This document shows, piece after piece, positions 780-61,643 of a stretch of 64,000 nt of DNA (positions within the stretch are counted from its first letter, which is position 1; each line of letters begins with the position of its first letter). A program made the position numbers and the translations under genes. The notes beneath the pieces were generated by a model. That model did not search any database. It was not told the origin of the DNA and saw only the letters and a program-made list of their open reading frames with translations. Source of the DNA: Octopus sinensis (lineage: Eukaryota); assembly GCF_006345805.1 (NCBI RefSeq), contig NC_043011.1, positions 49,674,464-49,738,463 on the forward strand, in the 5' to 3' direction.

Positions 780-1108
780 GTTATATATGGATTATATACT
801 TATATATTTTTTCATTTATACTTTAATTATTTAAAAGTATTATTTTTATATTTTAAAATTTTGATTTTTTAGATTGGAATCCACCTGAAGATTGTCGATC
901 AAGACAAGAAACGATTGTAGTGGCGGTTTTTTTTGACTATTTATTAAATTTTATGTATTGATTAAGTCTTTCCTTGTTTGTGTTTGCAAATAGTGGTTTT
1001 GTCTCAATAATATTTTATAATATTTTTTACTATAAAATTGGATTTAATCCTAAATCTGATTTTTTTTCCCTGTAAATTTGGATATATTCCCTAATATTTA
1101 TTATTATA
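780..1108 (+). mobile_element. Penelope pLTR-like non-coding terminus carrying the HHR, ending in ccctaatatt-(AT)n
   Basis: The tail (ttttactataaaattggatttaatcctaaatctgattttt-ccctgtaa-tttgga-tattccctaatatt) recurs at 8570-8645 and, more diverged, at 54330-54405, each time followed by (TA)n. The 5' limit is uncertain. Confidence 0.6.
881..923 (+). ncRNA. Type I hammerhead ribozyme (minimal, Penelope-type)
   Basis: ccac-CTGAAGA-ttgtc(gatcaa)gacaa-GAAA-c(gatt)g-TA-gtgg. The core is complete, helix I is ccac/gtgg, helix II is 5 bp, and the cleavage triplet is GUA. Confidence 0.85.
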
Positions 1109-1828
1109 TATATATATATATATAGAAATATATATATATTATATATATATGTGTGTGTGTGAGTGCGCGTGTATTATATATATATATATATATATAATGT
1201 ATGTATGTATTTATGTATACACACACACAACATATATATATATAAGCGCACACTTACATTTGTAAACAGATTCAATGTATATCTTAATATTTATCTTACG
1301 TGATAACTTATACAACTGTCAACCTTCTCCCACAATAAATCATATATTAGTAGTTACTTAACAATCAATATCCTTACCTGTCTACATAATTAGACATTTT
1401 CTGACTACAAATTACGCCTCAGCTACCTGCACAATATATATGTGTGTGTGTGTATAAGTAGATAGATAGATAGAAAGACAAACAGATAGATACATGGATA
1501 GATAGATAGATAGAAAGACAGACAGAAAGGCAGACAGACAGACAGACATACATACAGACAGACAGACAGACAGACAGACAGACAGACAGACAGACAGATA
1601 GATAGATAGATAGATAGATAGATAGATAGATAGATAGATAGATAGATAGATATGTCACGTCATCTCATAAACAATGCCCGAAATATCATATATGTAATTT
1701 CTATCAAATTTTACAGTATTCTAAATGTCATATGGTATTAATTGAGATACATGAATTTGGAAACCTTTAACTTCATATAAATTCTTTTTATGAAATAATC
1801 TGAAGTAATTGATATTAAACCCTCAAAG

Positions 1829-2735
1829 ATGGACGCATCGAAGTATCATTTAAAGCAGATTTACGCTTTATAAGTTCAAAAAGGGAAACTAGAGTAAGAG
1901 TAACCAGAAATAACCTTACTGTAGATGATGGTTTGTAAAGTTCAAAACTGGCGACTTCAGTCTAAGAGAGAGGCCACGAATTTCATGCTGAGCTTCTTTT
2001 GTTAGAGCTTGAGAAGGATAATGCTGTGTCAGTTGAAGAATTGGCAAGCAAGTTCAATTTAAACTATTCAACTATTCACCGCCATCTTTAACAGCTTGGA
2101 AATGTGCCCCAACTTGGAAAATAGGTTCCCCATGATTTAACAGACGACAATCGAAAATCACGAGGGAGCATCTGCTCATCTCTTCACTCTTGTGAATGTA
2201 TCTCACCATTTCTGAACAGGTTAGGGACTGGTGATGAAAGATGGACTTTTTATGGAGATGTCAAGAGATGCAGGCAATAGCTTAGGCTTAGAGAACAGGC
2301 TAGATCACAACGCAAAACGGACCTCCATGAAAAAAGGTTCCTCTTTTTGTTTGATGAGATTGCATTGTTGTGATCCACTTTAAGCTGCTACCAACTAAAA
2401 AAGCAATTACTGCTCACACTTTTGCCAACAGTTAGAGGGTTTGGGTACTGCTTTGAATTAAAAATGGTCTGCTTTGGCGAATCGCAAGTGAGTGGTGCTT
2501 CATCATAATAATGCAAGGCCCCTCACTGCAAAGATTACATTAGAAAACATTGAAGAACTTGGCTGGGAAAAAATCCCTCAGACACCTTATTACGCAGACC
2601 TCTCTCCTGATTACCATTTGTTTCGAAGCGTATAGAATCATTTAGATGGATTAGTACTCAAATGCCCCAAAGAGGTCAAAACTGACCTCTCATCCCTCTT
2701 CTCATCTAAACCAAAAGAGTTTTACACCAGTGGAA
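1829..2735 (+). pseudogene. Mariner (DD34D) transposase pseudogene
   Basis: Manual translation gives WFVKFKTGDFSL, (W)VPHDLT, FLNRLGTGDERW, HHNNARPLTA and PYYADLSPDYHLFR, matching the mariner WVPHEL/TGDE/HDNARPH/YSPDLAPSDY motifs. Many stops and frameshifts. Confidence 0.9.
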
Positions 2736-2739
2736 TTTA

Positions 2740-3527
2740 AAAAGTGATTCTGCGTAATGAAGTTCGTATGACAAAAGTTTCTCCTCGGTGCCACACATGA
2801 TCAAAAGTGCACCATGCTGATGACATCATGGAAAAGTCTGACATTGCCTGGGGCAGATCCAGCTGGTTTCCTTGAACATTTCCCAACCCACGATGAGAGT
2901 TGAGTTGATCACTATGAGTCAGAAACAAGGAAACAATCCATGCAGTGAAAACACCCCTATGCCAAAGAAAGCCAGGGTTGTTTCATCTGTAGGGAATGCG
3001 AGTGCCTCACTTTTTGGGGACGCAAAAGGCACCGTGTTTATTGAATATCTTCAAAAGGGCTACACCTTCAATGGAGAGTACTATGTCAACTTCCTGAGGG
3101 AGTTACGAAAAGCTATCAGGACCAAAAGCCAGGAAAACTGACGAAAGGTTTCTTGTTTTATCAGGTTGATGCTCCAGCACACAAGTACTTCGTTTCAATA
3201 GTTGTTGTGTGTGACCGTGGCTTTGAAATGGTTGATTACAGTGCCAATTCTTATTTGGCCCCATTTGACTATCATCTGTTCCTCAACATAAAAAAAACAC
3301 TCGGCTGGGAACGAGTTTTGGCAGCAATAACGACGTCATATCTGCTGTTGATGACATTTTAGATTAACAAAACGAGAGCTTCTTCGCCACAAGGATCCAG
3401 GCACTGTAACAGCGATGGAAGAAGTGTTTGGATCACAAGAGGGACTACGTTGAAAAATAAGTCTCATTTGGTTACAATCCATCAGAATGTCTTGCCCAGC
3501 CTATGAACTTTTCAGCCGACCCTCGTA
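2740..3527 (+). mobile_element. Second mariner relic (3' half of transposase plus right TIR)
   Basis: ORF pieces PKKARVVSSVG..LFGDAKGTVFIEYLQKGYTFNGEYY, QVDAPAHK and LAPFDYHLF. It ends in gaacttttcagccgaccctcgTA, a mariner-type TIR plus TA. Confidence 0.88.
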
Positions 3528-3544
3528 TCTATCTATCTATCTAT

Positions 3545-58838: not shown

Positions 58839-59198
58839 TATCAATACCTGACACCCTGTTATTTTATTTTATTCACCTTACTTCGAGTTGTGCGGATCAG
58901 ACCGTACTGACTTGGTACTTCGAGTTGTGCGGATCAGACCGTACTGACTTGGTGCTTCAACTTATGTACCTAATTTAACTGAATCTTAATTATGTATATA
59001 TATATATATGTGTGTGTGTGTGTGTATATGTACAAACCCACACGCATAATATAGATATATATATACACATATATATATATATATGTATATATATATATGT
59101 ATATATATATATATATTCATATATATATATATATACATATATATATATATATATATATATATATATATAAATACATAAATAAATATATAAATAAATAT

Positions 59199-59492
59199 GT
59201 GGAGGTGCAATGGCCCAGTGGTTAGGGCAGCGGACTCGCGGTCATAGGATCACGGTTTCGATTCCTAGACTAGGCATTGTGAGTGTTTATTGAGCGAAAA
59301 CACCTAAAGCTCCACGAGGCTCCGGCAGTGGGTGGTGGCAATCCCTGCTGTACTCTTTCGCCGCAACTTTCTCTCACTCTTTCTTCTGTTGGCCTGCTCG
59401 CTTAGCCAGAGGGTGGCGACATTTAAAGGCTAAAACAATGCGAAACGCATTGTGACCAGCGATGCGTAGCAACATCTGATAGCCTATTCAGT
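59199..59492 (+). mobile_element. tRNA-derived SINE (22437 head, different 3' tail)
   Basis: The first ~185 nt match 22437-22630, then the sequence diverges. Confidence 0.8.
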
Positions 59493-60026
59493 GATAAATA
59501 AATATATATGTCTGTCTGTATGTATGTGTGTTAATGTATATATGCATGTATTCTTATGTATATCTACGTATGTGAACGTACGCACATTCATGCAAACTGA
59601 CAAACACACTCACGTACACACAGTATCTTGAGATATATTTTACTTTACACTCAGCTCCTAAATTGACTTCGTTTTCAATTTATTTTTAAAATGAATTTCC
59701 TTTCTTTTTACACTTTCAAAATTATTTATTAATTCATGCTTATGAAAATGTATATTTTAAAATCTTATTTCTTGAGAGATATTTATCATATTCTAATAAC
59801 GATAACGAAGTTTTACATACATACGATATTTTCATCACAATTATACACTTACATACACACATATGTATATATAGAGAAAGAGATGCACCTAAATATATAT
59901 GCATAGATGAATGTATATATATATATAATGTATATATATATGTATATATATGTATATATATATGTGTATGTATATAAATATATATATATATATATATATA
60001 TATATATATATATATATATATATATA

Positions 60027-61200
60027 TGACTTTCATGACTTTCTGAAGAATAGAAGTCAGGTGGTAGCAGCCAATGGGGCCACTTCCATTAGCACGCAAA
60101 TAGTGAGCGGTGTCCCGCAGGGCACTGTTTTGGGACCACTACTGTTCCTAATGGCACTCTCAGACATGCCCTCAGCCACGCAGAGAGCCACGATCACAAG
60201 TTATGCAGATGATACAAAAGTTTCACAGGCAATACAGAACCCTGAAGACACTAAGCACCTGCAATGTGAGCTGGACGAAATATACAAGTGGACTGAAAAG
60301 AATAGCATGCAGTTCAATGCTGAAAAGTTTCAAGCTTTATACTATCAGCATGCAAAACTGAATGCAATACCTAATGAATACATTGGACCCGGAGGGATTG
60401 CAATCCCAGAGGCACAATCAGTGCGTGACCTGGGTATTCACATGAGTGATGACGCGACCTTTCATGTACATGTTGCTAAACTGACAATGAAATGTAGACG
60501 GCTGACTGGATGGATTCTTAGAACCTTTAGAACAAGAGAACAAGAAACCATGATGGTCCTCTGGAAGACACTTGTCCTAAGCCACTTTGACTATTGCTCT
60601 CAGCTATGGTCACCATCCAGTGTCAAGTTGATCACAGAACTTGAGGCGATCCAACGAAGCTACACGAAGAAGATAGCCTCTGTGCAGCATATGAGCTACT
60701 GGGAGAGACTCAAGAGATTAAAGCTCTATTCCCTGGAGCGTAGGCGAGAAAGATATGCCATAATATATATCTGGAAGATCCTGGAAGGTCTTGACCCAGA
60801 CTTTGGCATCGAGAGTCACACAAATGCCAGAACCGGACGCCACTGCGTAGTACCAAGGACTCCAAATTTGCCATCAAGATGTAGGACAAGATATTGTGAT
60901 AGCCTGGGCTTCAGAGCCCCACGGCTCTTCAATATCCTCCCGAAGAACCTGAGGACCTGCATGGTGTGGATGCGGATGTCTTTAAAGTAGGACTGGATCT
61001 CTTCCTGTCAGGTGTCCCGGATGAACCAACTTCACGGCAGGAGGCGCAGATGAGGGCAGCTGCATCGAACTCTCTCATGCATCAGATGGCGTTTGCTAAA
61101 AAGCATCCGTGAGGTAAAACCGTGTAGCAACCAAATGGCGGTGCCCCAGCATGGCCACGGCTCATTAGCTGAAACTGGAAAATCAAAATCAAAATCAAAT
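60027..61200 (+). mobile_element. CR1-clade LINE, 5'-truncated, RT domain open over ~310 codons, inserted in (TA)n
   Basis: [48 protein letters not shown] and LYSLERRRER; (AAAATC)n tail. Confidence 0.93.
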
Positions 61201-61556
61201 CCAATGATATATATATATATATATATATATATATATTATATATATATATATATATATATATATGCAGTTATACACGTACGTGCATTGTATTCAAGTGTGT
61301 GTGTGTATGCCTCATAAAGTATATGAATGCAAAAAGATAGTAACTAAGAAAGGGCAATTTTTCAAACACGCATTTAGTTTAACGCTTAAAGAAAATAACG
61401 AGTCGACGTTTTGGATGTCTGTCCTTCATCACAAGAAAGATAAAGAACAAAAGTACAGTAGAGCGATTATATGTATATATAGGTTTACATGAATCATTGT
61501 TTGATTATATATATATATATATAATCAAAATACGCAACAAGGATATCCAGAGGTAA

Positions 61557-61643
61557 TGCAGTACGATCGTTTCATGCGACTCCATTTAATTGAAGAATGC
61601 AAACATTACATGAATTTAAAATGTAGAGCAATCTTCAGCTGCA
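61557..61643 (-). ncRNA. Type I hammerhead ribozyme with long helix II
   Basis: Reverse complement tgcag-CTGAAGA-ttgctc...gagtcgcat-GAAA-cgatcg-TA-ctgca. The core is intact, helix I is 5 bp, and helix III is palindromic. It lies ~35 nt from (TA)n. Confidence 0.8.

Follow-up and report, generated by a model that had tools for sequence, protein, structure and literature searches.

A stretch of 64,000 nucleotides of the Octopus sinensis genome (assembly GCF_006345805.1, contig NC_043011.1, positions 49,674,464 to 49,738,463 of the forward strand; hereafter the window, meaning this whole stretch) raises a question. A preliminary description made from its letters counted about 17 hammerhead ribozyme motifs in it, and one may ask whether these motifs are real, what carries them and how they came to be there. 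The explanation that we favor overall, with a probability of about 0.7, is that they are type-I hammerheads lying near the 3′ ends of Penelope-like elements (PLEs) and retrozymes inserted in (TA)n tracts, where the ribozyme likely cuts multimeric transcripts to a unit-length RNA that would circularize. That the carriers are PLE ends and retrozymes is the part of this answer that we hold with high confidence, while for the copying of the insertions from a circular template the balance tips only slightly in favor.

Our descriptor of a type-I hammerhead combined CUGANGA or UUGANAA, GAAA and NUH with a helix I of at least 4 bp and a helix II of at least 3 bp spanning no more than 100 nt. It was passed by 10 of the 17 sites. 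Across 200 block-wise dinucleotide shuffles of the window, the mean was 0.285 motifs and the maximum was 2; the reversed window had none, and four decoy cores gave none each. A frequency no higher than in shuffled sequence had been named beforehand as what would speak against the motifs, and the excess is plain. The count itself needs amending: all 17 sites are a hammerhead core or a clear relic of one, and they lie where the preliminary description had placed them (on the minus strand it gave the low end of each motif), but only ten are intact; of the other seven, one is a fixed variant with U3-A8 and six have decayed or carry a mutated core. These 17 sites trace back to 12 insertions and the ten intact ones to six, and an 18th, previously unlisted relic lies at 55097 on the plus strand. 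Judged from sequence, the 17 motifs are real and derived from hammerheads, and their cleavage is predicted.

The non-intact sites depart from the consensus in different ways. The core at 41916 (+) has U3-A8, which is fixed in its family, where a relaxed descriptor accepts 14 of the 19 copies. One A of GAAA is gone at 6814 (+), U4 and helix I are gone at 37594 (−), the GAAA box is broken at 58447 (−), where four of 15 relatives are intact, and 58762 (+) is a decayed motif. At 49080 (−) the core carries U4C, as it does in most of the family (3 of 16 copies intact), and the family of 54763 (−) has a U3.G8 core without C3 (0 of 14 copies intact), the copies of these last two families having been chosen by likeness to the window copy. 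None of the window sites matched the Rfam hammerhead models at the gathering score; the sole Rfam hammerhead match in the window was HH9 at 41902-41967, with 24 bits against a gathering score of 52, and the rest was microsatellite noise.

The claims that the helices differ in sequence between families yet still pair, and that helix III is often a palindrome, were both borne out. In alignments of two groups of non-coding tandem units described below, we counted 4 covarying pairs with 10 cells changed on both sides in family A (13 rows) and 10 pairs with 16 such cells in family C (10 rows), cell counts that were reached by none of 500 shuffles. The rows were hand-picked, are related to one another and were scored without R-scape, so that the result is support rather than a significance test; read in this way, it supports the maintenance of the helices by compensatory changes in the two families. 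A pattern without any pairing but with a gap of 40-100 nt had 2,944 matches in the genome versus 11 for its reversed control, and 19 of the 21 distinct matches inspected had a helix I of at least 3 bp, a pairing that the pattern does not require. Among hits sampled from the genome, 15 of 26 had a wholly self-complementary helix III, versus 2 of 33 among shuffled hits. When folded as circles, the units of families A, B and C each beat 12 shuffles (z −4.0, −6.0 and −3.6, respectively).

Three of the 17 sites belong to 5′-truncated ends of autonomous PLEs, two of Hydra type and one of Neptune type, and nine lie in non-coding tandem units. The remaining five (49080, 54763, 58447, 58762 and 61638) adjoin open reading frame (ORF) fragments that are separate insertions. 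The 885 motif forms the terminal repeat of a Hydra-type PLE that is coding, with an ORF beginning about 310 nt downstream in three other loci (L318, L322 and L326), and the 37594 motif comes after a GIY-YIG-type C-terminus (L015; window 37597-37650). The motif at 41916 represents the 3′ end of an element which, in L295, encodes in frame 0 a CX2-5CxxC linker, a CCHH finger and, at the C-terminus, a GIY-YIG domain (E 9e-5); by its motifs this parent is Neptune-type, an assignment that does not tell Neptune from Nematis. Thus the preliminary description, which had made all the carriers non-autonomous Penelope derivatives, had the link to Penelope and the non-coding nature of families A, B and C right, but the 885, 37594 and 41916 motifs come from coding PLEs. 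PLE ORFs standing beside window families were also considered as parents and rejected at L077, L094, L268, L110 and L112, where they are separate insertions in common (TA)n tracts; the ORF at L097 is a doubtful case.

A genome search with the endonuclease remnant of the window returned 10,732 first-look candidates, of which 150 were scored. The Hydra-type ORFs are 639-668 amino acids (aa) long in one family and up to about 900 aa in a young one, and the autonomous ORFs show DKT, an RWK-like motif and a C-terminal endonuclease with CxxC/CxH and no CCHH, the assignment to Hydra being a motif comparison with the clade definition of Craig et al. (2021, PMC8557442). A CxCX5C linker is present in L072 and L078, the L244 family has a long low-complexity insert instead, and none was seen in the parent of 885. 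Both long-ORF families have a 3′ hammerhead near the end, which in the young family has a 55-nt helix II and a palindromic helix III; the parents of 885 and 37594 represent a third and a fourth Hydra-type family. No Pfam model matched the two Hydra-type ORFs tested, and protein searches gave almost no named matches. The young family (L241-L256, e.g. G000:C12623:44000-52000) accounts for 42 of the 150 scored matches, tied at the top with 100% identity over 150 aa, and its hammerheads are spaced about 3.6 kb apart. Young families such as these, with copies 98-100% alike, make the role of hammerheads in PLEs testable.

The non-coding units form three families. Family A has a 598-nt unit, an 18-mer of which has 1,689 exact matches in the genome; family B has a 542-nt unit homologous to that of A (z 11.9); and family C has a unit of about 480 nt (479 nt in L276), for which kinship with A or B was considered and found unsupported (z 2.0 and 2.8). 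None of the units holds an ORF. In the window, A and B are present as at least two tandem units with a complete type-I hammerhead in each intact unit, while the tandem arrangement of family C was seen only partially, in L276. On these features of their sequence, we classify families A, B and C as retrozymes without long terminal repeats (non-LTR retrozymes). Assembled contigs from three sequencing runs presumed to be RNA and from one unlabelled run matched family A in patches, a form of data silent on strand, ends and circles, and carry no weight in this classification. An AT-rich motif led by CCCT(T) is common to the three just before their end sites (15590-15610, 5480-5500, 37925-37945 and 49875-49895), and it is lacking in the two autonomous families tallied, so the driver of A, B and C may be another PLE. 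A further retrozyme array, at L013:6400-8100 and L143, has a unit of about 487 nt, with four units and an inverted arm, a helix II of 68-78 nt, a helix I of 8 bp and a 12-nt self-complementary helix III.

One could also suppose that the ribozymes were retained for a role in the host, for instance to cut the pre-mRNA of a gene that extends over the whole window, and eight of the ten intact motifs do lie on one strand. However, these ten come from just six insertions, both strands are used, six of the 17 motifs are decayed and every motif lies in a dispersed repeat family. A Pfam scan of 109 of the 321 candidate ORFs in the window and 80 kb of flanking sequence found no host coding exon, only transposon domains, a result with which a long intron is compatible. 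We regard a host role as extremely improbable.

How the retrozymes were inserted may be read from the anatomy of family A, for which we examined 48 loci, mostly first matches on C1. The 3′ ends fall either at about position 196 after the cut site (site 1) or at about 290-305 (site 2) and are followed by (TA)n, while the 5′ ends are scattered. Head-to-head insertions with two arms numbered 28, of which five had one unclassified arm; among the 23 fully classified, 21 paired a site 1 arm with a site 2 arm (binomial p about 2e-5). Single-armed insertions ended at site 1 in 18 cases and at site 2 in five. Two autonomous families kept to the same pairing in their two-armed copies (9 of 9 and 3 of 3), as did the two-armed insertions of family B that were visible in full (3 of 3), and the arms of the family C insertion in the window also stop at two different sites. 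An apparent co-occurrence of long arms (3 of 3) was set aside, as those loci had been chosen for length and the correlation disappears without them. The link between retrozymes and PLEs has so far been argued in print from co-occurrence and sequence kinship, and the two-site rule, read from genomic sequence, is direct evidence that PLE machinery inserts retrozymes.

The units of one array are also nearly alike. Substitution distances within arrays were 0.07-2.0% (below 0.7% in five of seven arrays) versus 3.0% between arrays; arrays carried variants of their own, fixed in all their units, and the two arms of the same insertion differed by 0.65% versus 4.1% between insertions. Such homogeneity would be accounted for if single PLE ends had inserted and had then been amplified locally as satellites by unequal crossover, a model that Li, Clavereau and Pollet (2026) discuss and that has been proposed in print (bioRxiv 10.64898/2026.07.22.740005). 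It fits poorly, however, with the dispersal of A and B as complete non-coding units across many chromosomes, their ends following the two-site pattern of PLEs, with the presence of several units in both arms of inversions (L089, L202 and L087+L088), and with our finding no coding parent for A and B among the few autonomous 3′ ends compared. We consider satellite amplification very improbable as the origin of the arrays.

Under insertion by PLE machinery, transcription would run through the tandem units, and the transcript would be cleaved, probably as dimers formed via the palindromic helix III and possibly with the assistance of a protein, before ligation of the unit-length RNA to a circle. 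A PLE protein, probably acting as a dimer, would then cut both strands of a (TA)n tract and prime reverse transcription at two internal sites, one for each DNA end. Each polymerase would travel round the circle, the number of turns varying, and both cDNAs would be joined 5′ to 5′. Retrozymes likely borrow the enzymes of PLEs. The fixed ends are downstream of the cut, so that a linear cut monomer would give a fragment only; for whole tandem units, the template has to be a circle or an uncut multimer, or template jumps have to occur. The presence of one haplotype per array favors a one-unit bottleneck, hence a circle. In vitro, a PLE of the anole starts reverse transcription at two internal sites and cuts both strands (PMC11167929), and the end-site footprint described here fits one start site per DNA end; circular RNAs have been demonstrated for the retrozymes of corals, mussels and the axolotl (PMC7229834).

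Several observations weigh against this scheme. Insertion by the anole PLE in vitro does not require ribozyme cleavage, with uncut RNA as the main template (PMC11167929), and among nine retrozyme dimers of Xenopus only one cleaved (bioRxiv 10.64898/2026.07.22.740005). Two window families, those with the U3.G8 core (0/14 intact) and the U4C core (3/16 intact), have spread with non-canonical cores, even if U4C reduces but need not abolish activity (PMC3088659). Folding z-scores of single motifs were weak (−1.55 to +0.75), and among the handful of autonomous 3′ ends compared we found no autonomous PLE that shares terminal sequence with A, B or C. Gene conversion could serve as another homogenizer of the arrays. 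Finally, the partner arm was the nearest, or tied for nearest, in just 13 of 21 insertions, which we attribute to the sharing of haplotypes among subfamilies.

Part of this evidence would suit a linear template, that is, mobilization by PLEs of an uncut multimer (or of a monomer with template jumps), with the hammerhead as a passenger or serving another step and gene conversion homogenizing the arrays. Such a course agrees with the anole experiment and with the spread of families with non-canonical cores, and PLEs without canonical hammerheads are described as proliferating well (Craig 2021, PMC8557442). Compensatory changes that preserve the stems across subfamilies do not agree with it, nor do array-private variants in every unit, which need a one-unit bottleneck, and we judge a linear template unlikely.

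To place the window within the genome, we sampled eighty 10-kb stretches (800 kb) at round coordinates on C1-C26, a sample that is not strictly random and excludes small contigs. A scan with helix II up to 100 nt, the limit that the preliminary description had proposed, gave 32 descriptor hits in this sample, compared with 3.3 in shuffles and 1-3 for decoys. Extrapolated to the 2.72-Gb assembly, this amounts to about 97,000 motifs (bootstrap 53,000-152,000), or about 36 per Mb. The density is 156 per Mb in the window, 40 per Mb in the sample and 50 per Mb in the flanks (4 in 80 kb). This puts the window at about four times the density of the sample, near the top 1% of 64-kb draws (bootstrap P of at least 10 in 64 kb about 0.01). 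In it one sees, at a locally high density, some of the PLE-linked hammerheads that populate the whole genome. The suggestion that their carriers make up much of its AT-rich DNA was overstated, as hammerhead elements occupy about 7.8 kb, or about 12% of the window with hand-set borders, where interspersed repeats make up at least 59%.

Of the 32 sampled hits, 22 have a helix II that spans 40-100 nt (a few by chance), and a limit of 30 nt recovers no more than 8. Should the long-stem motifs cleave, existing counts of ribozymes in animal genomes are too low. A bolder composite picture, which we put forward tentatively and at somewhat less than even odds, would have about 100,000 active-type hammerheads, mostly of a long-helix-II form missed by standard models, with retrozymes copied from RNA circles by a PLE dimer that primes both (TA)n ends at two staggered sites and leaves a two-site, one-haplotype footprint in thousands of insertions. 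Short minimal-type families, in which helix III is just ACGU, also occur in the genome sample (L038:3863, L094:2916 and L146:9075; L049 and L085), with none in the window.

Hammerheads in PLEs and retrozymes are already known, and what is added here is scale and a handle on mechanism. The axolotl is reported to have 120,000 hammerheads in 28 Gb (PMC7229834), implying roughly 4 per Mb; the figure of about 36 per Mb in O. sinensis is well above this, the two descriptors being different. Hammerheads in PLE pseudo-LTRs were described by Cervera and de la Pena (2014, PMC4209133), and those of the octopus resemble them in being type-I, with a palindromic helix III, an extra base at the foot of helix II and many divergent families per genome, and in occurring mostly as truncated single copies, with opposite-strand pairs 100-700 bp apart and a U3-A8 core variant. 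In contrast to the long helix II found here, theirs has 7-8 bp at most, and the text of that paper yielded no mollusc terms. The Hydra clade of Craig et al. (2021, PMC8557442) shares with the octopus elements the DKT and RWK-like motifs, the lack of CCHH, the CxxC/CxH endonuclease, the (TA)n target, an inverted 5′ copy, a one-ended tail and a 3′ hammerhead. A short hammerhead is recorded there for Hydra-1_Obim of Octopus bimaculoides (files S1 and S2), and the animal Hydra hammerheads listed have a short helix II, whereas we found several further families, one of them young with an ORF of about 900 aa and a 55-nt helix II, and tails of about 70, 100 and 155 nt rather than 30-40. The same paper describes Naiad elements of octopus and squid with core halves 35-50 nt apart, which may be the same long-stem form unrecognized.

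The non-LTR retrozymes of other animals (PMC7229834; bioRxiv 10.64898/2026.07.22.740005) are likewise AT-rich, non-coding tandem units with one type-I hammerhead each, and they coexist with PLEs, of which they have been proposed to be non-autonomous partners. Those of the octopus differ in their units of 480-600 nt, their extended helix II and their two-armed inverted arrays with PLE-type end sites; we found no coverage of cephalopods in the text of either source. The green anole element Poseidon_Ac (Frangieh et al. 2024, PMC11167929) also has two internal starts downstream of the hammerhead, cuts both strands and has an AT-rich target, but showed no strand difference in start site in vitro, while the two arms here almost always use different sites. 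Octopus repeat papers (including PMC13282606), in the text available to us, mention Penelope and not ribozymes. A search of the open literature, beyond which lay subscription papers and the supplements of the bioRxiv preprint and of Bonar 2026 (which may bear on novelty), found no cephalopod hammerhead census beyond Craig 2021, no animal PLE family with a long helix II, no tally of two-site arms and no earlier report of arrays with one private haplotype in all units. Together, the long helix II, the two-site arms and the private-haplotype arrays point to PLE-driven, likely rolling-circle, insertion.

The insertions and PLE remnants of the window are listed in Table 1.

Table 1. Hammerhead-bearing insertions and PLE coding remnants, in window positions.
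Position	Strand	Feature	First box, intact hammerheads	Predicted cut after
520..1100	+	5′-truncated 3′ end (pseudo-LTR) of autonomous Hydra-type PLE; ends at (TA)n; start approximate	885+	919
5477..6565	−	Main arm of the family B retrozyme, with two non-coding units of 542 nt; ends at end-site 1	5723−, 6265−	
6779..7130	+	Inverted arm of family B with the broken hammerhead 6814, ending at end-site 2		
15586..17408	−	Array of three family A retrozyme units of 598 nt, flanked by (TA)n tracts; helix II 67-69 nt	15864−, 16463−, 17053−	15778, 16376, 16968
33883..35235	+	Decayed Hydra-type PLE coding fragments, reverse transcriptase thumb to linker (hidden Markov model E 1e-9 and 9e-16); hammerhead not attached		
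37476..37830	both	Rearranged 3′ end of Hydra-type PLE: decayed long-helix-II hammerhead 37594 (−); endonuclease C-terminus and 3′ untranslated region (+)		
37920..38665	both	Family C two-armed insertion (unit about 480 nt)	38119−, 38389+	
41770..42015	+	5′-truncated Neptune-type PLE end, fixed U3-A8 hammerhead 41916; start approximate		
48920..49250	−	Hammerhead 49080, with long helix II and U4C core		
49480..49895	−	Family C relative with short inverted arm	49762−	
54540..55270	both	Old two-armed insertion; hammerhead relics 54763 (−) and 55097 (+)		
55508..56601	−	Decayed coding remnant of Hydra-type PLE, with thumb, linker and C-terminus of the endonuclease		
58125..58650	−	Long-helix-II hammerhead 58447, broken GAAA box; intact members exist in family		
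58700..58900	+	Decayed relative of 61638 family; first box 58762		
61500..61990	−	Hammerhead with helix II of 58 nt, 38 nt before (TA)n	61638−	

Other repeats accompany them. An unrelated dispersed repeat lies inside the junction of the two family B arms (6566-6778), with another copy at 40651-40780. A tandem repeat of about 184-235 nt at 26143-27021 and 42592-43040 had no hammerhead core. Reverse transcriptase fragments of long interspersed nuclear elements (LINEs) are found at 59929-60990 on the plus strand (Pfam RVT_1, E 3e-11) and, as weak matches, at 29400-30800 (−) and 44304-44882 (+), and an inverted pair of about 520 nt, 81% alike (18886-19409 and 20223-20764), surrounds a trinucleotide tract.

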